The translations under genes and the position numbers were made by a program. This document shows, one piece after another, positions 3,576 to 49,689 of a stretch of 49,689 nt of DNA (positions are counted from its first letter, which is position 1; the number at the start of each line of letters is the position of its first letter). The notes beneath the pieces were generated by a model that saw only the letters and a list, made by a program, of their open reading frames with translations, made no database searches and was not told where the DNA came from. The DNA is from a phage: sequence record NC_105788.1; one strand, written 5' to 3'.

Positions 3576-3992
3576 ATGAAAACCATTAAACTTAAATGCA
3601 CTTCAGCAGACAAAATCACAGGATTCGAAGTAAACAATCTGTATAAAGGTCGTGAGCGCTATGATGGCACTCGCGAAGTAAAGTTAAAATGCGGTAAGTA
3701 TTTAAAACTTGAAAAGCATGATGAATTACAGATTCACGGATCTGATGAAATCTTCTTCGCGAAGTTCACCGAGTTGAAAACAAAGACGCTCAAGTGCACC
3801 GGACTTGACCATCGCAACCCGATGAAAAAATCATTCAAAGTTGGCAAGCGTTATCAGGTAGAAAGCGGTCGCGCTCTTGGTGGCGTAGCTGGTTACATCT
3901 TTGATGAAGATGGATATCGCTGGACCCTGTTTCGCGAAGAGGTTGGTTTTAGTATCGCAGACGGCACAACCTTTGAGGCCAAATACTTATAA
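3576..3992 (+). CDS. hypothetical protein (138 aa)
   Basis: ATG preceded by AACCAATCAGGAG block. Confidence 0.55.
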   Translation: MKTIKLKCTSADKITGFEVNNLYKGRERYDGTREVKLKCGKYLKLEKHDELQIHGSDEIFFAKFTELKTKTLKCTGLDHRNPMKKSFKVGKRYQVESGRALGGVAGYIFDEDGYRWTLFREEVGFSIADGTTFEAKYL

Positions 3993-4068: not shown

Positions 4069-5637
4069 ATGTTTAATATTAAGCCAAAACTGAATTACCA
4101 ACAGATTATTGAGATCGCAAATAGCACTGGAGTTAATCCGGTGGCGATCGCAATTCGTGAAAACAGCTATGGGGATTCAGTTTCGTTTTGGCAAGATCCG
4201 ATCGATATCAACAGTGGAAACGATAAGTTCCCGCTGATTTCGTTAGGTGGCGATAACCTGGTATTCGAATATGCAAAGGCAAAGGCTGAGTCTGTACAGT
4301 TTCCTGTTTCGTCTGCGTACGCTCATTTCATTGGGTGCATCTCAGCCGCGATGCTAGGGAAGTTTTGGGTGCAATATCACGGAGAAGAGCAACCGACCGC
4401 TCTTTATATGGTGATTAGTCAGCCACCTTCAACAGGTAAATCAGCTATTAACTCAGCGGCGATTACACCTATGCGTGCGGAGATTCAGCGGCTGAATGAA
4501 GAGCGAAAAAAGGAGCGCATCCGTTTAACCAGTCAGCTACGTCAGGTCGAGAAGGAAATCAAAAACGATCCAAAGGGTAATACGACGGCGGCGCTGTACG
4601 AAGACAAGGAAAAACTGGAAGAAAAGATCAAGAAGATGGCTGATATTGTTTTTGCGGTATCAGATCCTACACCTGAAGGTCTTGCGAAAGTTGCGGCTGT
4701 TCAAGGTCATTTCTCAGTAATCTCTGATGAGGCAACGGCAATAAATACATTGCTTGGCCTGACTTATGGCGGCTCTGATAAGAAATCAAACAGCGAGCTT
4801 ATACTCAAGGCGTGGGATAAAAACCATATGGAGGTTGCGCGTTCAAATCAGGACAACAACTTATCTCTTTGCCCGGTCGGTTCGATCTGCGTCATTGCGC
4901 AGGATGAAACAATCAAGGGTATCATGGACGCAGGCCAGCGCGGCATCGGTGTATCTGAGCGTTTCCTCCTGGTTCGCGAGGAACCGCTTTTAGGTACTCG
5001 TATTCTTTGCGATGAAAATGGTGATGCGCTGTATAAGGAAGTCGATCGAGGGTTGGTGAGTAAATATTATCGACTCGTGCACAACATTATGAAGGAGGAC
5101 AACATTGTTCTCTCTGTAAGCCGCAATGCTATGCGTGAATTAAACCTTGCGCGTCAGGCGATGGAGCCGGATTTCGCAGCCGGGGGAAAATACTCTCACT
5201 CAATGCTACGCGGTCATCTCGGCAAGTTCGATAAGCATGCCTTGCGTATTGCTTCAGTTCTCCACACGATCAAGAATTGGGAGGGTGAATCACCGAACCG
5301 TTCCAACCGTGAGATTGACCTTGAAACAATGCAGGAAGCAATCATGATTTTCAATGAGCTTTCCAGGACTTATCTGTCGTCTGCCAGCGCTGCCGGGTAT
5401 GCTGGTGATGAGGCTGAATCTCGTAAGCTGATTGATGTTATCACTGAGATCGCAAAGAAGAACAAAGGGCGCGCTCCGATTCATAGCATTGTTGCAAAGT
5501 GCCGGAATGTTACGCCGTTCAACGGTCAACAGAAAGTATCTGAGCGAATCGACAGCCTGCTGATCACGCTCGAAGAGATGAACTACACTTGCCGGATTGA
5601 TGATATTGTTTTCATCAACCCTCGACTGATGGGTTAA
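4069..5637 (+). CDS. large early protein of unknown function (about 522 aa) with P-loop-like PPSTGKS motif
   Basis: ATG 4069 (GTG 4066 possible) after AAAGGAG; long uninterrupted ORF; motif resembles DUF3987-type NTPase signatures but not verified. Confidence 0.55.
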   Translation: MFNIKPKLNYQQIIEIANSTGVNPVAIAIRENSYGDSVSFWQDPIDINSGNDKFPLISLGGDNLVFEYAKAKAESVQFPVSSAYAHFIGCISAAMLGKFWVQYHGEEQPTALYMVISQPPSTGKSAINSAAITPMRAEIQRLNEERKKERIRLTSQLRQVEKEIKNDPKGNTTAALYEDKEKLEEKIKKMADIVFAVSDPTPEGLAKVAAVQGHFSVISDEATAINTLLGLTYGGSDKKSNSELILKAWDKNHMEVARSNQDNNLSLCPVGSICVIAQDETIKGIMDAGQRGIGVSERFLLVREEPLLGTRILCDENGDALYKEVDRGLVSKYYRLVHNIMKEDNIVLSVSRNAMRELNLARQAMEPDFAAGGKYSHSMLRGHLGKFDKHALRIASVLHTIKNWEGESPNRSNREIDLETMQEAIMIFNELSRTYLSSASAAGYAGDEAESRKLIDVITEIAKKNKGRAPIHSIVAKCRNVTPFNGQQKVSERIDSLLITLEEMNYTCRIDDIVFINPRLMG

Positions 5638-5641
5638 TAAT

Positions 5642-6049
5642 ATGCTTCTTCTTTTAGATCTGTTCAGGTTCTGCGAAGGTTACGACAAATACACCCGACA
5701 GCACATAGCGAAATTTATATACGCCCACAATGAAAGTGAGCGATTTGCTAAGGCCGCCGGGATGACTCGCCGTGAATTTACAAGCGCGCTATCTAAGGAG
5801 TTTTGCGCACGTTGCGTGACTGAGGGTTATCTTGATTGCAGGGGTGGGTTTTACTGGTGCAAGGGAAAGATCAAGCGCCCGGTAATGATGAAGCTGATGT
5901 GTATTGATGGCTACAACAATCGATATACGTGGGAAATGATGCACATTGGAGAAATGAGTGATGAAGAATTGTTTGGCGAACGTAGAAACGTTGATAGATC
6001 GGAACGTCGAATTGTGCGCAAGGCTCCAGCTTACGAAAGAAGAATTTGA
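5642..6049 (+). CDS. hypothetical protein (135 aa)
   Basis: ORF track; overlaps next call by about 90 nt in another frame, so the true 3' end is uncertain. Confidence 0.4.
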   Translation: MLLLLDLFRFCEGYDKYTRQHIAKFIYAHNESERFAKAAGMTRREFTSALSKEFCARCVTEGYLDCRGGFYWCKGKIKRPVMMKLMCIDGYNNRYTWEMMHIGEMSDEELFGERRNVDRSERRIVRKAPAYERRI

Positions 6050-6161
6050 GCAAGGATTACTTAGCCTACTGCTCACTTCGATGAGGGCCAATAACGACGG
6101 TGAGCACAATCTTTGCGATCAGGATGGGGAGTTGCTACTTCACGTCAAAAGGTACAAATAG
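5961..6161 (+). CDS. hypothetical protein (66 aa)
   Basis: ATG after GGAG RBS; stop TAG lies inside a box copy, as for many other genes. Confidence 0.45.
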   Translation: MKNCLANVETLIDRNVELCARLQLTKEEFEQGLLSLLLTSMRANNDGEHNLCDQDGELLLHVKRYK

Positions 6162-6177
6162 CACTTTTTGTTAAAAC
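6158..6177 (+). promoter_or_regulatory. conserved box ATAGCACTTTTTGTTAAAAC followed by hairpin CCCGAT..ATCGGG, TATATT and TTCATCGAAACGAAACG leader
   Basis: box copy. Confidence 0.6.
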
Positions 6178-6238
6178 ACCCGATCTCGCATCGGGTATAT
6201 TTGTTTCATCGAAACGAAACGACCTGAAGGAAAACATC

Positions 6239-6454
6239 ATGGCTAACAAATTTTTAGTAGTTCGCGTTTACAATCACTCAAACGGTACTAGTAGTGAGAT
6301 TCCTACTCTTTACAGCAAGACTGATGGGTGGACTGAAGAAGCGGCGGTGGCGAACGAGAAGAAGGTCGCTGAGATGTACGGCGACACCTGTGAAATTGAA
6401 GTTCGCGAATACGCAAAACTCACGAACGAAAGTTACATGTGGGCTGATGCATAA
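6239..6454 (+). CDS. hypothetical protein (71 aa)
   Basis: ATG 6239 after GAAGGA RBS (internal start of ORF 6113..6454). Confidence 0.5.
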   Translation: MANKFLVVRVYNHSNGTSSEIPTLYSKTDGWTEEAAVANEKKVAEMYGDTCEIEVREYAKLTNESYMWADA

Positions 6455-6458
6455 AAGA

Positions 6459-6487
6459 AAAGGAGGCTTACGCCTCCTTTTTTTCGT
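6459..6487. terminator. bidirectional intrinsic terminator (AGGAGGC-TTAC-GCCTCCT flanked by A-run and T-run)
   Basis: GC stem plus T8 on + strand and A-run upstream; lies between convergent + and - transcription units. Confidence 0.7.
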
Positions 6488-6872
6488 CCTTACGAATTGA
6501 AAAATAAACCAGCAACAGGCCAATGAAAACGAGAGTCCATCCTACAATTGCATCGTACCAGTTTTCCGGTTTTGTTACTGTGATGCTTTCAGCGTTAACC
6601 GTGTTAGCCTGAATGGTTGACACTTCAATTGACTTCTTCAAGGAAGAGTCAATCTTTCCTACATTGGACTTCTCAACTTTAACATCTCGCTTATCTTCGG
6701 ATTTTGCGGTTACTCCTGCTAATTGCTTTGTGTTCTCCTCTCCGATTTGTGCTGTAACTTCCGGTTTAGATCCGATTAAACCGCTCATGGCAGATGCCGT
6801 CGAGCAACCGGATAGAGAAATAACACCAACAGCAACAGCAATCGCAATGCACGTTTTCTTCATTCTCATCAT
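6468..6872 (-). CDS. unimolecular spanin (u-spanin, T1 gp11-like)
   Basis: N-terminal lipoprotein signal with lipobox LSGC plus C-terminal transmembrane helix ([20 protein letters not shown]); directly downstream of endolysin with ATGA start/stop overlap. Confidence 0.75.
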
Positions 6873-7357
6873 AGTTCCTTAACGCAATACGCGTATTCTT
6901 CAGCGCGTCGGTTCTTGAGTCCTCTAGACACTTCGCGCTTTTTGGTTTTTGGGTTGTAGTAGTATACCCATCGCCATAACTGATTGCACGCTTCCTTGTG
7001 CTTACTCTGATTTATTAGCTTAAGCATTGTAGACGATCCGAACGCGCCAGTCCCAACGTTGAAAGTGAAGCTATACAGTGATGCGCGCATAGTTACCGGG
7101 ATATCAACCTTCACCTTTTTGTCGACGTATCGCTGAGCGACGCCGATATGTTTTATCAACAAGGCATCGCATTCTCGCTTAGTGTATTTCTTACCAGGTA
7201 TGACGTCAGGCCCGGTTATTCCGCTGCATACGGTAGGGACTCCGGCGATATCGTAATAAACCTCGTATTCTATACCTTCGATCCGTTCCAGTAGGGTAGG
7301 TGTCAACGTCAAAGCGGCCCCGATTGATGCGCCTATAACGTTATTTTTTAAACTCAT
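6869..7357 (-). CDS. SAR endolysin (lysozyme, phage 21 R-like)
   Basis: Gly/Ala-rich weakly hydrophobic N-terminal SAR-like segment followed by E..D..T lysozyme-type catalytic region; strong GGGGGAG RBS; position between holin and spanin. Confidence 0.7.
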
Positions 7358-13473: not shown

Positions 13474-13926
13474 ATGAATATGCAACGTATCGCAGAATCA
13501 ACTGGTGAAATCGATAAACGTCACATTAATGGTAACAACGGAACGCGACGCGGTAAAGATAAAAAGCCTCGCCAACGCTGCGGTTTCTATATCCACAAAG
13601 AAGAAACACGCGCCGGACTGAGAGCGCGACTTGACGCTCTTATTGAATATTACGGCGGCCCAGCGGCCTGCGCAAAGGCTCTGAAAGTTAGCAATCAGAC
13701 CGTGCAAGGCTGGAAAGAGCGCAATATGATTTCGTGGCAAGGTGCTGAAGCTGCACATCGTGCTTACCGTCGTCAGGGTTGTAAAGGATTCCGCGCCGCA
13801 TGGTTGCGATTCGACCTCAAGTTTGACGGTAACGGCAAGTGTCTAGAGAAACGATGCAAGAACAAGAAGTTTATGCGAGTGGTGAGGAAGGAAGATATCG
13901 GGACGACCAATAGCATTTTTAGTTAA
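13474..13926 (+). CDS. Cro/C1-type HTH DNA-binding protein
   Basis: HTH segment GGPAACAKALKVSNQTVQGWKE; CAGGAG RBS; last codons TNSIFS-stop encoded by a box copy. Confidence 0.55.
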   Translation: MNMQRIAESTGEIDKRHINGNNGTRRGKDKKPRQRCGFYIHKEETRAGLRARLDALIEYYGGPAACAKALKVSNQTVQGWKERNMISWQGAEAAHRAYRRQGCKGFRAAWLRFDLKFDGNGKCLEKRCKNKKFMRVVRKEDIGTTNSIFS

Positions 13927-13986: not shown

Positions 13987-14922
13987 GTGAACGAAGAATT
14001 TATGATGTTTCAGAAAGAGGACGTATTACCGTATATGAAGGGGTTATGGCGCGAGGCGTTCCAGTCCATATGCGGATTGCCTAACGAGGTTTTCAACAAG
14101 AAGCACCAACCTTGCCCTAACTGCGGCGGCAAAGACCGTTTTCGCTGGACTGACAATCTGAATACTCCCGGCGACGGCGGCGCGATCTGCAACTCATGCG
14201 GTAACGACTCAGGAATCGGTTGGCTAATGAAGCTAACTGGAATGCCGTACAGCGAATGCATAAACATCCTGGGGAGATTTCTCGGAAAGGTTCCGCAGGA
14301 ATACATTGTCAAGGCCAACAAAAAAGCGCGCCGAACTCCTGTATCTGGTGTTAATGTTATGATGGCAGACCACGAGGCAGTGATGAAAGTTATGGTGCGT
14401 ACAGAGAAGCGCGTAAACACGCCTCTAAGCACGTTTGAGTCACTACCTACTGAATCATTCGACGTTGGCGTAAAACGTCGCGAGGATGGCTCAGAATCAG
14501 TATTTCACACCATACCGTGTCAACTTGTACACGAGGACGGGCTTGATGATGAGTTCTGCAATATTTTGATTATTGATGAGGAAGGAAGAGAGTCATTCTA
14601 CGCGAAGAAATACACAAGCGGATCAGTTGCCGTGACTGGTAAAACTGAAAAGGCGATCTACTTATGCCTGAATTGGATTGATGCTCAGCACATTGCATTT
14701 CACACAAAACAAGAGGTATGGGCCTGCTTCACTCCTGAAAACCTAGAAATGGTTGCGTACAGATACAAAGGGGATCGCGAGGTAAGGGTGGCGTGCGAAC
14801 CTTCAGACAAAGATACTTTGTACATGGCTGACGATCGACAATTGAAGATAATCATCCCGAATCACGGAGGATACCGCTCAGGAATGCAAGCAAAATTATT
14901 CTCAGCAAGCGACCTACTTTAA
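13987..14922 (+). CDS. DNA primase with N-terminal zinc-ribbon (T7 gp4 / P4 alpha-like)
   Basis: CPNCGG..DRFRW..CNSCG zinc-ribbon motif typical of primase-helicase Zn-binding domain; GTG start after GGAG. Confidence 0.65.
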   Translation: MNEEFMMFQKEDVLPYMKGLWREAFQSICGLPNEVFNKKHQPCPNCGGKDRFRWTDNLNTPGDGGAICNSCGNDSGIGWLMKLTGMPYSECINILGRFLGKVPQEYIVKANKKARRTPVSGVNVMMADHEAVMKVMVRTEKRVNTPLSTFESLPTESFDVGVKRREDGSESVFHTIPCQLVHEDGLDDEFCNILIIDEEGRESFYAKKYTSGSVAVTGKTEKAIYLCLNWIDAQHIAFHTKQEVWACFTPENLEMVAYRYKGDREVRVACEPSDKDTLYMADDRQLKIIIPNHGGYRSGMQAKLFSASDLL

Positions 14923-16916: not shown

Positions 16917-17333
16917 TTAGAACGGAATATCATCATCAAATGTTGACTGAGGATTTGGCTGTGGCTGTGATTGAGTTCGCTGTTGTTGCTGAGGTGCTCG
17001 TTGTTGCTGGTTGCTTTGTCCTCTCTGACTGAATACCAGCTTAGGAAAATCAGCAGCCTGCAATGAATTGTAAATCATTCCGTTGTGCTCACGTGATGAG
17101 ATCCTCAACGTCTCGCACGATACTGAGATTACTCTACCAACCTGGAACGCATCACGATACCAGTCAGCGAGACCAGGCTTCCCACCGTCGCTAAAAAAGA
17201 ATGTGTAGTTGGTGTATTCGCGATCGCCATCACGCGGCTTATAGCTTTCTGACAGTTCGATTATGTAAGTATTGCCGCCGTTACGTTCCAGAATCTTCGG
17301 TTCTTTGCGGATCTCTCCAGTGATAATATGCAT
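16917..17333 (-). CDS. ssb: single-stranded DNA-binding protein
   Basis: Gln/Pro-rich linker and hallmark acidic C-terminal tail DDDIPF. Confidence 0.75.
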   Translation of the reverse strand: MHIITGEIRKEPKILERNGGNTYIIELSESYKPRDGDREYTNYTFFFSDGGKPGLADWYRDAFQVGRVISVSCETLRISSREHNGMIYNSLQAADFPKLVFSQRGQSNQQQRAPQQQQRTQSQPQPNPQSTFDDDIPF

Positions 17334-17380: not shown

Positions 17381-18028
17381 CTATTCGAAGTTGGTTATTG
17401 ATTGAGATTGTACAGGTTTCGCGCTCGTTGCTTCAACCTGTTTTTTCTGTTCCGGTTGCGCCGGGCGAATGCCGCGAGCTTTTCCGATCTCAAACTTAGC
17501 CTTCAGTGCGTTGTAGTGATCCTGAATGATTGACTTGCTCGCCGTGTCAGTCTGGCGATAAGCATTGGCCCAAACATCCTTCAGTGACTCGATATCTTCG
17601 CACGCATCAAGTTCTTTCTTCCAGTCCTTGACGGATTTCACCGCAAGCTGCGCGTCGTCGTCACTTTGGCTAATTCCCAGCGCGGCGGCTAGAGAGTAAC
17701 GTCGAGCATACGTCATTGCGGAACCTACGCCTTGAGGATCTCGTTTTGCAATCGGCATCATCATGAAGAATTTGGCCCATTGCCCGGATTTGTGAATCAG
17801 CATAGTTTCAAGGTGGAATGTTGTTTCCGTGCTGGTATCAAGCATTGATTGCAGGATCATGATATCGTTATCGGTTAACGCCGGACTAACTGCCGCCATC
17901 ATTGCGTCAAGAGTTGCGTATGAATTTTTCAGGTGATTGTTTTTAGCGTCCTTCTTTGCCTTCGCGAATTTATTGCGAGCGTTGAACAGTGCCGGAAGGA
18001 TTTCATTGGTTTCTGGTGATAATTGCAT
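17381..18028 (-). CDS. erf: ERF-family single-strand annealing protein
   Basis: GSAMTYARRYSLAAALGI motif typical of ERF proteins; start moved to internal ATG preceded by ACCAATCAGGAG. Confidence 0.65.
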   Translation of the reverse strand: MQLSPETNEILPALFNARNKFAKAKKDAKNNHLKNSYATLDAMMAAVSPALTDNDIMILQSMLDTSTETTFHLETMLIHKSGQWAKFFMMMPIAKRDPQGVGSAMTYARRYSLAAALGISQSDDDAQLAVKSVKDWKKELDACEDIESLKDVWANAYRQTDTASKSIIQDHYNALKAKFEIGKARGIRPAQPEQKKQVEATSAKPVQSQSITNFE

Positions 18029-18102
18029 CTTAACTTCTCCTGATTGGTGTATGAGGTGCATTATAACACCTCACTAATTATTTGTTTAGCTATTTGTGCC
18101 GT

Positions 18103-19167
18103 TTACTTGTTTTGGTAGCGTACCCATGACGGCGTTTCAAGTTCGATCTCGCTTGCGTCGCCAGCGTATCCTGGCCAAACATCCATCTCAGAACAAGCCT
18201 TGTAAGTGTGGACAACGCTAACATACTGACTACGACCGATCCTGATTTGCTCCATAGTCATACGGTAAGCAAGTGCGATGTAAGGCTCTTTTTTCTCCTG
18301 CGCAAGCAATCGAACTACGATCGGGATATCTTCCGGGAAGTTTCCTTCAAAAGCGCCAGCTTGGATTGCACGTCGTAGCAGGTCATGCTGCAAGGCCATT
18401 TTAAGATAATACCCGTGATTGTATGCCAGTCTCGGGAACTCTAACGGGTTGGCGCTCATCGTGGTTTTGAAGTCAGTGATAATTAGCGCTTCAGGGAAAA
18501 TAACGTCTTCAAATACCGGATCGCCGTTATCATCATAACCAGTCAGTACGCGACCTGGTACATTCTCTTTGTAGTCCAAGTGATCGAGTCGAACCTTAAC
18601 CTTGACTCCGGATATTTCACCGAAGATTGAGATTTCACGCTGAGCCGTTTCACTGTTGATGCACGCTTCATGATCGGGGTTCTGTTCAAGTATAGCTCTC
18701 ATCTTCATGCAGGCGTCGTATTTATCAGCGTCTACGAGTTTCTTTCCTTCAGCACGCGCCTCAGCTTCTGCGATCAGTTCAATCAGGTATTGAACATTAA
18801 GGTCTTCGCCACAATCAACCATCATTTTGATGAGGTCCGGGTACTGCTTACCGGATGTACCTTTCAGGCCGAATGATTTTAATTTTGCTGCCAGCGCCGC
18901 CTGCGAAGTAATCAGATCCTTAAACTCTGCCGGAGCCGGGCAACGGGCATACGATGCAGTAAACAGATCTCGGCTCTCAAAGTTGGTATGCGACTGAGTA
19001 CCGAACTCCAGCGCTTTCGTTGTCTCATTCTTCTTGAATCGCCAGTTAGCCGGGCAAGTTTGATAGATTTCTGCAAGACTCGATCCGCTTACATACTCTG
19101 CCGCCCAACCTTCGTTACTATGATACTCGTCATTAGAAAGCTGACTTGATGTGAATACTTGGAACAT
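18103..19167 (-). CDS. recombination exonuclease (PD-(D/E)xK, RecE/YqaJ-like)
   Basis: PEALIITDFK PD-(D/E)xK-like motif; first gene of exo-erf-ssb module; AGGAGA RBS. Confidence 0.55.
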   Translation of the reverse strand: MFQVFTSSQLSNDEYHSNEGWAAEYVSGSSLAEIYQTCPANWRFKKNETTKALEFGTQSHTNFESRDLFTASYARCPAPAEFKDLITSQAALAAKLKSFGLKGTSGKQYPDLIKMMVDCGEDLNVQYLIELIAEAEARAEGKKLVDADKYDACMKMRAILEQNPDHEACINSETAQREISIFGEISGVKVKVRLDHLDYKENVPGRVLTGYDDNGDPVFEDVIFPEALIITDFKTTMSANPLEFPRLAYNHGYYLKMALQHDLLRRAIQAGAFEGNFPEDIPIVVRLLAQEKKEPYIALAYRMTMEQIRIGRSQYVSVVHTYKACSEMDVWPGYAGDASEIELETPSWVRYQNK

Positions 19168-19198
19168 TGCGTTTATCTCCTTCGTTTACGATGAATCC

Positions 19199-19226
19199 AT
19201 TATAGCCATTAACAGCGTTTAGTCAA
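19199..19226 (-). promoter_or_regulatory. near-consensus sigma70 promoter (TTGACT-16 bp-TATAAT) for recombination module
   Basis: read on minus strand about 30 nt upstream of exonuclease ATG. Confidence 0.6.
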
Positions 19227-19329
19227 TCGAATACATGTAATTGATGTGTAATTGCGTGTCTATATCGCTCAAGTTACAACCAGCATCAACGTAATCAATA
19301 GCTTAATCCTGTTTTTATGTGATGTCTAT

Positions 19330-19615
19330 TGCGTAACACTTGTAACCGCTTTTTCTTAGAAATACACAGATATCCATGAATAGAATCCCGATCGATTAAA
19401 TTTTGAGCATATATGATAGAAATTTGACGAATCAATCAAATCACCTGTTACACGATAGACAACTGTTACACAACAATAATTATATATATAAAGCTAAAAT
19501 TAAATATTATCTATCTATATGTATTATATAGAGTTTTTATCATATCTCCCTGCGGTCGGATGGGGTCGATTTTGTAACACCACCTCCAGTTACAAAAATA
19601 GACACCTGTTACACG
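19330..19615. repeat. AT-rich region with at least 5 copies of TGTTACA(C) / TGTAACA in both orientations
   Basis: read directly; divergent intergenic region between exonuclease and cor-like gene. Confidence 0.5.
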
Positions 19616-19635
19616 AAAAAATTGTAATCGGGCTA

Positions 19636-19664
19636 TTGCAATAAAAGTAAATGCGACATACAAT
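19636..19664 (+). promoter_or_regulatory. sigma70-type promoter (TTGCAA-17 bp-TACAAT) for cor-like gene
   Basis: read directly. Confidence 0.5.
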
Positions 19665-19693
19665 GCAATCACACTAACGACGAGGACATGCAA

Positions 19694-19921
19694 ATGAAAA
19701 AGTTAATCACCATTATCGCTGCGGCATTCATTCTGACTGGTTGCTCATCGATGCCTGAGCGCACTTGCACGGCAATTTATGAATCAGGTGGAGCGGAGTA
19801 CTCGGTTTACGTTTTTGGCTCTAAGATGCGCGGAAAGGAGATGGTATTGCGTGCTGGATACCCATTCTCCTTCAACTATGTATCAGAGAAAAACTTCAAA
19901 TCTCACGATTGCTCGATATAA
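19694..19921 (+). CDS. cor: Cor-like small outer-membrane lipoprotein (superinfection exclusion candidate)
   Basis: about 75 aa, signal peptide with lipobox LTGC; own promoter and terminator; position next to fibre genes matches cor of T1/phi80-type phages. Confidence 0.6.
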   Translation: MKKLITIIAAAFILTGCSSMPERTCTAIYESGGAEYSVYVFGSKMRGKEMVLRAGYPFSFNYVSEKNFKSHDCSI

Positions 19922-19943
19922 AAGAAAAGCCCCGCAAGGGGCT
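19919..19943 (-). terminator. intrinsic terminator (AGCCCC-TTGC-GGGGCT + T-run on minus strand)
   Basis: hairpin at end of late operon, shared with convergent cor gene. Confidence 0.65.
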
Positions 19944-20632
19944 TAGTCGTATGCTGCCGTTTTGATTGCTGTTATAATATTTCCATTATTCGTTGTGTTC
20001 ATTATCTGACCCGCCGCAGTGGTTGCTGCTGCATTTATTCTCGTTGTGCTCCCGTTGTACCTGCATGAACTTCCTGCTGTTGAGTTTCCTATTATTGGTT
20101 GCCCAGTTGGCAACCTACCAATAACAACTTGATAGTTGCCAAGTATAGTTGGAACAACCGCGTAGCTTCCGCTGAGTGTTGTGTCTATGTTTAATCCACC
20201 GCCAGCGTATCCAGGAGTGCCGATTGTAACCAAATCACTAAGGACTTTTGTCTCATTTGTCAGCACTAGCTTTCCTGACGCATCCCATATCGCCATACCC
20301 CAGCTCGGTAGTGACTGCTCAAATATGGCAAATATGTAATATGTTAGTGTGTATGATTGGTTTGCTGGATTTGTCCCCCTTATATAAACAGTTCCAACAT
20401 TGGGTCCACTTCTGAAAGTAAAGGCTGAAAGCGCGGTCCCCTGCTGCGTACTTGTTGTTTTGCAAAAAGCTATAACCGGAACACCTGTAGGTATCCGAAC
20501 ATATCTCTCCGCAACCTGTGAACCACTAACATTTACTGATTTAATTTCCCCTCTCGCATATAAAGCGAATGGCGTGGATAGCGGGGTTATGAATGGATTT
20601 CCGTTTACATCTATAAAAGCACCGTATGACAT
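19943..20632 (-). CDS. putative distal tail fibre / receptor-recognition protein (229 aa)
   Basis: last gene of late operon downstream of J; Gly/Thr/Asn-rich; shares a (A/S)IWDA(S/N)G motif with the preceding 101-aa protein. Confidence 0.4.
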   Translation of the reverse strand: MSYGAFIDVNGNPFITPLSTPFALYARGEIKSVNVSGSQVAERYVRIPTGVPVIAFCKTTSTQQGTALSAFTFRSGPNVGTVYIRGTNPANQSYTLTYYIFAIFEQSLPSWGMAIWDASGKLVLTNETKVLSDLVTIGTPGYAGGGLNIDTTLSGSYAVVPTILGNYQVVIGRLPTGQPIIGNSTAGSSCRYNGSTTRINAAATTAAGQIMNTTNNGNIITAIKTAAYD

Positions 20633-48393: not shown

Positions 48394-48909
48394 TTACAGT
48401 CCACACTTTTCGATATGCGCTTTCATCTGGCGCACGATCTCATTTACATCACGAACCATTAACTCGCTGTCGCTCAGCTTGCTAACATCAACATCAAACG
48501 AGTCCAGGCAATCAGCCAAGCTAACTTTTTTCCGGCTGCGGCGCTTCTTCACCGGAACCTCTTCGTCGGTAACGATAACGGTTATCATCGTGATTGCCGC
48601 GTCATTCCGGCCTACCTTCACCTTTGCCACCTTGCCATACTTGCAAAAGTGTCGGGTAATGATCGGAGTGATGAAAGCGGACTTGAATCTCTTCTCTACC
48701 TCCCCCTGGTTCTGGTCAACCCATCCGGCAGCGGCAGATTCAAGATCGGCATCGCTTACCTCCTGGCCCCGAAAGTAGAATCGCGCTGCTTCTAGGGCCA
48801 TATCATCAGCCACGAAAGAGAACTCATTCATGCCTTTGTCGCGGTACATTGCATCGCAGGTTAGTCGAATCATGTCGGTGATTTTTAATTCCTGATTGGT
48901 ATTGCTCAT
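48394..48909 (-). CDS. hypothetical protein (171 aa), first gene of minus-strand early arm
   Basis: ORF track; directly downstream of AT-rich regulatory hub. Confidence 0.5.
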   Translation of the reverse strand: MSNTNQELKITDMIRLTCDAMYRDKGMNEFSFVADDMALEAARFYFRGQEVSDADLESAAAGWVDQNQGEVEKRFKSAFITPIITRHFCKYGKVAKVKVGRNDAAITMITVIVTDEEVPVKKRRSRKKVSLADCLDSFDVDVSKLSDSELMVRDVNEIVRQMKAHIEKCGL

Positions 48910-48929
48910 AATATGCTCTCTTTGTCTAT

Positions 48930-49300
48930 TGGTGTGTAAATGGTGTCATAACATGTCAACAATTGCCATTGTGACAGAGCGACGTAGAGCTGTCAACGAC
49001 TGCAAGCCAATTTTAAGCCGTGTAATATTTGTCTAGCCGTCTAGAGTCACTATAGAAATATATAGCCCTCAAAAAAGTACTGTATATATAAACATGCAGA
49101 TAGAAATATGCCAGCAGTACGCTAGACAATGTAAGACGGCTATACACAACTATTACAATATAATTATCTATATATATAAATAAAAAAAACACTATATATA
49201 TTATATATATACATATATCTATATGTCTATTGTGATGCGTCACAGTGCGTAATTTTGTCACAAGTGCGATTCTAGACAAATATTACAGTCGTGACAAGTT
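48930..49300. promoter_or_regulatory. AT-rich divergent control region with inverted repeats (TAATATTTGTCTAG ... CTAGACAAATATTA) and repeated TGTCAC/GTGACA motifs
   Basis: read directly; separates divergent early transcription units. Confidence 0.5.
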
Positions 49301-49312
49301 AAAGTGTAATCG

Positions 49313-49332
49313 ATAGCACGTTTTGCTAAAAA
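49313..49332 (+). promoter_or_regulatory. conserved box ATAGCACGTTTTGCTAAAAA
   Basis: box copy. Confidence 0.55.
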
Positions 49333-49517
49333 TGGAGATGACTACCAGGCGAACCGGGTAACACTAAATCCTCCCTCTCACAATCATTGCATTCTAAGCA
49401 ACAATCACATCAACAGTTGCACACCATGCAACAATCGCATTTCATCATTCGAGATCAATCGGGATCGCAATTATTCCAGATATTCCATTGCTGGTGGAAT
49501 AATGAGCAACTATTGGA

Positions 49518-49537
49518 ATAGCATTTTTTGCTAACGA
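49518..49537 (+). promoter_or_regulatory. conserved box ATAGCATTTTTTGCTAACGA followed 23 nt later by TATGAT and AACCAATCAGAGGA RBS block
   Basis: box copy. Confidence 0.55.
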
Positions 49538-49592
49538 TTTGGTCAGGCTGGCAGGGTATGATTCATATCATCAACCAATCAGAGGAATCGAC

Positions 49593-49689
49593 ATGAATAT
49601 TGCAAACATCAACGCAGCCATTAATCGTTACGAACACATCTATCGCGTAGCTCTGTTCTCTGACATGGCGCTAGCCAACAAGTCGAAGT
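49593..49689 (+). CDS. 5' fragment of an early gene truncated by window end
   Basis: ATG preceded by AACCAATCAGAGGA; open to end of window (MNIANINAAINRYEHIYRVALFSDMALANKSK...). Confidence 0.4.
   Translation, partial: MNIANINAAINRYEHIYRVALFSDMALANKSK

Follow-up and report, generated by a model that had tools for sequence, protein, structure and literature searches.

A selectively maintained, duplicated repeat array around an AT-rich core upstream of exo is a candidate replication origin in T1-like phages

Replication origins often adjoin the gene for their initiator, and modules that combine iterons with a DNA-unwinding element are already known as a kind. Lambda-type and plasmid origins unite iterons, an AT-rich region and IHF (review cited within PMC7145576). 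In satellite phage P4, two regions are annotated in the RefSeq record as ori and crr (“cis required region for replication”), each with “ori type 1 repeats”; we read these repeats as TGTTCACC 8-mers that lie in both orientations, spaced by 10–11 bp, and surround DNA rich in A+T. T1 belongs to the original T phages, and members of its family, the Drexlerviridae, commonly contaminate laboratories and are candidates for therapy. Neither T1 nor TLS has a known origin (PMC11447400, PMC7718038), no oriC-like site has been found (PMC7718038), and a re-annotation of TLS reported no iterons anywhere in its genome (PMC11447400). Our own search of the literature for a T1 origin or transcriptome returned nothing relevant.

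Here we examine a gap of 520 bp in a phage sequence of 49,689 bp (NC_105788.1; hereafter the window). The gap is 100% identical to the corresponding DNA of Escherichia phage CLB_P3 (OL770108.1), a T1-like Tunavirus, and as a query it matched 64 phage records; the full-length matches are all at least 92% identical, and those fetched are Tunavirus. As the initial annotation had described, it separates the recombination genes from the divergently oriented cor:
16917–17333, minus strand: ssb, in the exo-erf-ssb operon
17381–18061, minus strand: Erf gene, in the exo-erf-ssb operon
18103–19167, minus strand: exo (PDDEXK domain), in the recombination operon exo-erf-ssb to the left of the gap
19199–19226, minus strand: P_exo, a sigma-70-type promoter for exo-erf-ssb (TTGACT-16-TATAAT, 11/12 consensus matches)
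19636–19664, plus strand: candidate cor promoter (TTGCAA-17-TACAAT, 9/12 consensus matches; 10% of columns variable; an annotated promoter in SA32RD)
ATG at 19688 or 19694, plus strand: cor, a lipoprotein gene to the right of the gap

The gap is also present in relatives without cor and is therefore not mainly about that gene. No regulator gene adjoins it, its flanks being exo and cor; the gene for a Cro-like HTH protein lies about 5.7 kb away, and the replication genes are 5–15 kb distant, a separation that counts against an origin. The comparisons below establish that the gap holds a selectively maintained, non-coding, duplicated and family-wide array of putative protein-binding repeats around an unwinding-prone core, and that it contains the exo and cor promoters. 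Our tentative reading, held with somewhat less than even confidence, is that the gap may be an iteron-flanked unwinding element, one of two sister origins, with outer repeats that also serve the exo and cor promoters.

The initial annotation counted at least five copies of TGTTACA. The clustering is confirmed, with a smaller tally: the window contains six exact heptamers, of which four lie in the gap (19446, 19464 and 19607 on the plus strand, 19573 on the minus strand), and further copies there carry one mismatch (AGTTACA at 19272 and 19588, TGTAACC at 19341). The 14-mer CACCTGTTACACGA occurs twice, at 19442 and 19603, as first noticed; a scan of viral contigs with it gave about 120 matches, nearly all of them chance occurrences in unrelated contigs, and the relevant ones were confined to T1 and IME18. 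Because the base before GTTACA varies (T or A), the conserved functional unit is the hexamer GTTACA and not TGTTACA, and it often appears as ATAGACA-N2-TGTTACAC. Seven of the 21 genome copies of GTTACA/TGTAAC fall within the gap, where their frequency elsewhere in the genome predicts 0.15 (Poisson 3e-10), and a maximal 6-mer count of at least 7 arises in 0.3% of dinucleotide shuffles. For (G/A)TTACA, 10 copies are observed and 1.2 expected, a count that 0 of 1000 shuffles reach. ATAGACA has half of its eight genome copies inside the gap, two on the minus strand to the left and two on the plus strand to the right, so that each points with its neighbouring transcription unit; three of the four belong to a bipartite unit ATAGACA-N2-(T/A)(G/A)TTACAC. 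From left to right, the elements between the two promoters are:
19236–19252, minus strand: two ATTACA hexamers (plus-strand TGTAAT at 19236 and 19247), separated by 11 bp and without variation across the Tunavirus alignment
19257–19278, both strands: ATAGACA at 19257–19263 (minus) and GTTACA at 19273–19278 (plus)
19293–19305, plus strand: exact IHF consensus AATCAATAGCTTA (WATCAANNNNTTR), one of three genome matches, with 0.03 expected in the gap
19323–19346, minus strand: ATAGACA at 19323–19329, a variable GTAACA at 19333–19338 and an invariant TGTAAC at 19341–19346, from the inverted repeat and the alignment
19442–19473, plus strand: left inner repeat block CACC-TGTTACAC-G-ATAGACA-AC-TGTTACAC-AA, from two repeat families; 10–15% of columns variable
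19474–19546, no strand: AT core of 73 bp, a candidate DNA-unwinding element by composition (G+C 0.14; 0.137), conservation and duplex stability
19547–19567, no strand: short, hypervariable island richer in G+C, 70% of columns variable
19573–19628, both strands: right repeat block with a TGTAAC-N10-GTTACA inverted pair, ATAGACA at 19598, GTTACA at 19608 and TGTAAT at 19623, from the inverted repeat and the same two repeat families

The very AT-rich stretch thus sits where the first reading had placed it. Nearest-neighbour free energies rank this AT core and that of a second, paralogous region (region 2, below) as the two least stable 50–100-bp duplex segments of the genome, with instability z-scores of 5.0–5.5 for the gap core and 5.8–6.3 for the region 2 core versus 3.2–3.6 for the next-ranked sites. 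At the IHF site, the consensus positions are conserved among Tunavirus relatives while the N positions vary. In the gap, DnaA boxes do not exceed chance and GATC occurs once, with no cluster, which is not expected to matter because the initiator would be phage-specified. G+C skew, which had been put forward as a check, was computed; it tracks only gene orientation and transcription and is uninformative on replication.

To follow selection on the gap, we aligned 15 Tunavirus genomes. Variable columns make up 21.5% of the gap versus 58% of exo third codon positions, and by this measure the gap is under purifying selection. The constraint is concentrated at four places: P_exo (0–5% of columns 19188–19227 variable), the hexamers, the AT core, and the cor promoter with its ribosome-binding site. 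Variable positions amount to 2/60 in the ten hexamers and 5/73 in the AT core against 92/259 in the remaining gap (Fisher 4e-8 and 4e-7, respectively), so the repeats are conserved in related phages, one of the points on which the initial annotation had made its proposal depend. Between TGTAAC (19573) and GTTACA (19589), both of which are invariant, the 10-nt spacer is free in sequence and fixed in length. Constrained hexamers and core, together with free spacers of fixed length, are a signature of protein-binding sites.

The comparison was then widened to 46 Drexlerviridae loci with an exo relative, down to 42% exo identity. In 46/46, the 560 bp upstream of exo are AT-rich (G+C 0.31–0.38) and enriched in short repeats. 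We read the layout base by base in T1, SRT8, IME347, ESCO41, TLS and four further lineages, and the nine share a common order: P_exo, left repeat clusters, a repeat pair, the AT core and a right-hand cluster of two or three repeats. A block equivalent to 19442–19473 precedes the AT core in SRT8, IME347, ESCO41 and the TLS-like lineages, and the core itself resembles ..TATATATAATAATAA..TATTATATAG.. across lineages. TLS-like lineages carry an additional inverted repeat pair between the core and the right-hand cluster. The repeat sequence differs from lineage to lineage:
Tunavirus: GTTACA
SRT8 (Sertoctavirus): (G)ATTACA, 10 copies
IME347: GTTACA plus GTGACA
ESCO41: GTTAC plus GTATAC
TLS-like and Webervirus-like: (G/A)AACA(A), mostly in tandem pairs 8–11 bp apart

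Pairs of (G/A)AACA number 4–9 where about 0.1 is expected (0/1000 shuffles). In gaps of the TLS type, TGTTCAC also stands to the left and GTGAACA to the right, each at a conserved flanking position, and four of the eight TGTTCAC-type sites in the TLS genome fall within regions 1 (the gap) and 2. TLS has no cor, yet its composite is fully kept; the gene upstream, for a J-like tail protein, converges on the element and nothing is transcribed rightward from it. The repeats are lineage-specific though all the hosts are enterobacteria, which argues for a binding protein that is phage-encoded and not a host factor. A host transcription factor, OmpR- or ArcA-like, was rejected as the binder because the motif differs between phages that share a host. 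Of the initial proposal of iterons beside an unwinding element, protein-binding repeats and an unwinding-prone core are therefore well supported by conservation, stability and recurrence across the family, and origin function is the part that we hold only tentatively.

The genome’s other G+C minimum, at 48900–49350, sits between two divergent early operons and contains a second copy of the element:
49130–49312, plus strand: paralogous second composite, found by local alignment to region 1, with TAGACA, GTGACA and ATTACA repeats flanking its core
49150–49225, no strand: region 2 AT core, G+C 0.11, the least stable DNA of the genome

Local alignment of regions 1 and 2 in the same orientation scores 48–65 in CLB_P3, T1, SRT8 and TLS versus a shuffle mean of about 23 (sd about 2.7; maxima 33–39), so that the copy was found in all four genomes examined; the SRT8 alignment extends over about 310 nt. 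In TLS, the repeats flanking the region 2 core are GAACA/TGTTCACG. The AT-rich intergenic region as a whole spans 48910–49595 and includes a perfect 16-nt inverted repeat (49021–49036 and 49272–49287).

Several considerations lead us to favour an origin. TLS keeps the whole composite without a rightward gene; a second paralogous copy exists, a two-copy arrangement parallel to P4 ori/crr; the layout is that of iterons plus an unwinding element, with an IHF site; the repeat core is common with P4, to which the primase is also homologous; and the family has no known origin. The reading is further supported because the phage encodes its own replicative-type DUF3987 helicase, with a winged-helix gene immediately downstream. 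The proteins concerned are encoded at:
3576–3989: two-domain protein, before the DUF3987 gene with one gene between in T1; its N-terminal half is hypervariable among genera
4069–5634: DUF3987 protein (Pfam E 1e-42)
5642–6046: small winged-helix protein, directly downstream of the DUF3987 gene
13474–13923: Cro/C2-like HTH protein (Pfam P22_Cro 4.5e-5; PHROG “transcriptional regulator”)
13987–14919: primase, preceded by the Cro/C2-like HTH gene

A published analysis assigns the DUF3987 family to the MCM-like SF6 replicative helicases (PMC4889955), and 5′-3′ helicase activity has been demonstrated for one of its members (PMC11724360). In five Drexlerviridae genomes, the primase matches residues 1–263 of P4 alpha, its primase domain (P4 alpha gene 4636–6969), with E values of 1e-10 to 1e-12. 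We also looked for the protein that reads the repeats. Among the candidates T1 056, 070, 073 and DUF3987, none co-varies cleanly with repeat type: the N-terminal domain of 073 tracks SRT8 and not ESCO41; position 2 of the 056 helix splits TTACA-type from AACA-type lineages and is otherwise unconstrained; 070 and DUF3987 show no tracking. The N-terminal domain of the 3576–3989 protein diverges specifically in SRT8, where it has 35–40% identity versus about 90% for the C-terminal half, and is TLS-like in ESCO41 despite the GTTAC repeats there. PDB sequence searches with 056, 070, 071 and 073 gave nothing significant.

These elements suggest how the site could work. The gap would be a cis-acting nucleoprotein assembly site, at which a phage-encoded, sequence-specific protein would bind the (G/A)TTACA hexamers, several of them in bipartite ATAGACA-N2-TGTTACAC units. 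IHF at its site would bend the left arm, and protein bound on both flanks would open the 73-bp AT core; recruitment of the MCM-like DUF3987 helicase and the P4-alpha-type primase would follow. Simultaneously, P_exo and P_cor would be tuned by the hexamers farthest out, which stand at about -45, -57/-60 and -80 from each start.

A purely transcriptional control region is the strongest competing explanation, possible though doubtful to our minds. The hexamers would then be operator or activator sites of a phage regulator, such as the Cro/C2-like HTH protein, which would switch early promoters at two paralogous hubs as in lambda OL/OR, and the AT core would be a UP-like or bent promoter-upstream element or a weak promoter. 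Such a role would explain much of the same data through the divergent gene heads and the positions of the outer hexamers. Both copies lie between divergent operons, and the phage does encode a Cro-like HTH protein. The outer hexamers occupy typical activator/UP-element positions, about -45 to -95 from both starts: they stand at about -45, -57 and -83 from the start of P_exo, the first two being the ATTACA pair (~45 and 57 nt upstream of the inferred start), and at about -45, -60, -80 and -95 from that of P_cor. In SRT8 and L163, a repeat pair likewise begins about 10 nt beyond the P_exo -35, the same place as the CLB_P3 pair, and in TLS one TTGTT pentamer sits within the P_exo spacer. P_exo has already been annotated as a promoter by others in T1 and SA32RD, and the region 2 core holds TAGACA-18-TATAAT, with 11/12 promoter matches. 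Yet no Tunavirus hexamer overlaps a core promoter; in CLB_P3, none touches a -35 or -10, the nearest starting 10 nt (P_exo) and 8 nt (P_cor) upstream of the -35. The idea that the hexamers are themselves the -35 elements of stacked promoters was rejected, since only one of 11 (GTTACA at 19465, with TATAAA at 16 nt) has a -10-like partner at 16–18 bp. The region 1 core offers no usable -35, no promoter within the AT core is conserved from lineage to lineage, and TLS retains the AT core, inverted pair and right cluster about 250 bp from P_exo with no rightward gene. In the Cro-like protein, SRT8 and IME347 have the same recognition helix, and this helix is very variable among the AACA-type lineages. 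The two roles are compatible and not exclusive, and we retain an origin with regulatory outer repeats as the preferred reading.

Hexamer arrays with an IHF site also occur at phage P1 pac. A DNA-transaction site other than an origin, such as a pac/terminase recognition site or a recombination or concatemer-resolution site beside the recombination genes, is nevertheless improbable. Such a role gains from the mapped genome terminus, which lies inside region 2: coordinate 1 of TLS is its mapped pac site (HindIII at 5876, EcoRV at 2733), and the 2.8-kb terminal repeat of T1 (1–2800) begins at the homologous place, near 49431 in the window and some 200–230 bp to the early-right of the AT core. This terminus, however, is about 200–230 bp beyond the paralogous segment, in sequence that region 1 does not share, and some 20 kb separate region 1 from the terminase genes. 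Were there a second pac at 19.5 kb, it would yield a second submolar fragment series, whereas only one pac fragment is described in the TLS study (PMC11447400). In several Tunavirus records, the sequence is linearised at the position homologous to the TLS terminus. Near this presumed terminus lie four copies of ATTCCA/TGGAAT (49473–49519) and two 24-nt direct repeats, TTGCA..GCAACAATC(A/G)CAT (49387–49440), which may be terminase recognition sites.

The weakest explanation, a hidden small gene or non-coding RNA behind the conservation, is highly improbable: conservation is strongest in 6-bp units that occur in both orientations, relatives carry stops or frameshifts in four of the five small ORFs (among them three CLB_P3 hypothetical proteins and 19511–19693 on the minus strand, frameshifted in 7/15 and already suspected to be non-coding), and the weak terminator-like hairpin at 19548–19565 lies in the most variable part of the gap, without covariation by RNAalifold (term -0.04). 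The fifth ORF, 19295–19435 on the minus strand (CPTT1_049 in the T1 annotation), is open in 15/15 Tunavirus genomes. Its variable sites fall 8/14/12 at codon positions 1/2/3, with 29 nonsynonymous versus 11 synonymous codon types, and other genera lack a syntenic homolog; with neither a coding-type pattern nor a homolog elsewhere, it is probably not a gene. An Rfam scan of 18900–20100 returned a single snoRNA-family match, far below threshold and attributable to chance, and a terminator or small RNA at 19548–19567 was rejected on the hypervariability of that segment and its lack of covariation. The gap, as judged from these comparisons, is non-coding.

The origin reading can be extended, more speculatively, to the whole family. 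On this broader and rather unlikely proposal, the Drexlerviridae would replicate from two paralogous unwinding elements flanked by repeats, the first located upstream of exo and the second in the terminal-repeat/early-promoter region, with an initiator split between the DUF3987 helicase and the small winged-helix protein and with a P4-alpha-type primase. If true, it would bring archaeal-ORB-like or P4 ori/crr-like origin logic to a classical virulent coliphage and would answer where T1 replication starts; should the element prove to be only regulatory, it would instead mark out the family's early control hubs. With two precisely bounded candidate elements that recur across the family, their conserved positions and a short list of candidate binders, the origin question can be tested directly. 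This element, its duplication, the lineage-specific repeats of the Drexlerviridae and the link to P4 appear to be new, none having been found in the literature searched.

The closest described repeat in the same genome is a 21-nt intergenic direct repeat of T1-like phages, aaATAGCACnnnTTGnTAAAA, whose function the TLS paper calls unknown (PMC11447400). It resembles the gap repeats in its first half (ATAGCAC versus ATAGACAC), and both it and the ATAGACA of the gap point with the neighbouring transcription unit. Unlike the lineage-specific gap repeats, it is conserved from genus to genus, and it stands about 20 nt before a -10-like element, as the gap repeats do not. Of the 24 copies of ATAGCAC and 19 full-motif copies, ATAGCAC-N3-TTG-N-TA(AAA), in the window, none lies within 19168–19687. 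The 19 sites of ATAGCA(C/T)-N3-TTG-N-TA (for example 733, 1198, 1615 and 6158 on the plus strand; 42913, 44806, 47640 and 48379 on the minus strand) always run with transcription, and the -10-like element that follows is of the extended type; at 12 of them a hairpin (z < -2) encloses or abuts the -10, followed by a conserved CATCGAMAACGA leader. They have the look of a separate class of phage promoter. Immediately upstream of the cor promoter, the sequence (TGTAATCGGGCTATTGCAATAAAAG, 19628–19664) resembles the region 2 junction (TGTAATCGATAGCACGTTTTGCTAAAAATG, 49305–49335), and on this likeness the cor promoter may derive from the direct-repeat type as a degenerate copy.

As with lambda OL/OR, a pair of paralogous regulatory regions heads the divergent early operons, and the phage encodes a Cro-like HTH protein; unlike the lambda operators, the Tunavirus hexamers stay clear of -35 and -10, are mostly not palindromic 17-bp sites and have no adjacent regulator gene. 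With the origins of staphylococcal pathogenicity islands (SaPI), iteron plasmids and lambda the gap has in common two sets of short iterons that flank an AT-rich melting region. Those origins, however, lie inside or beside an initiator gene, whereas the element here is upstream of a recombination operon, and its repeats measure just 6 bp, or some 17 bp when taken as bipartite units. In P4, the repeats are bound by the C-terminal domain of the alpha primase-helicase, of which no homolog was detected here: tblastn of the alpha C-terminus against five Drexlerviridae genomes gave E > 0.4, with no homolog of the origin-binding domain, and hhalign of that domain against the winged-helix protein family gave a probability of 0.3%. 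The Drexlerviridae helicase is likewise of the DUF3987/MCM-like kind and not the helicase domain of alpha, and P4 function is established by experiment while that of the gap is a proposal. The likenesses are as follows: P4 ori/crr also comprises two separate cis regions with the same short repeat both ways, about 10–11 bp apart, in AT-rich DNA; TGTTCACC has a TGTTCAC core in common with the TLS-type repeats; the Tunavirus TGTTACAC is one inserted base away from this P4/TLS core; and the Drexlerviridae primase is homologous to alpha in its primase domain only.
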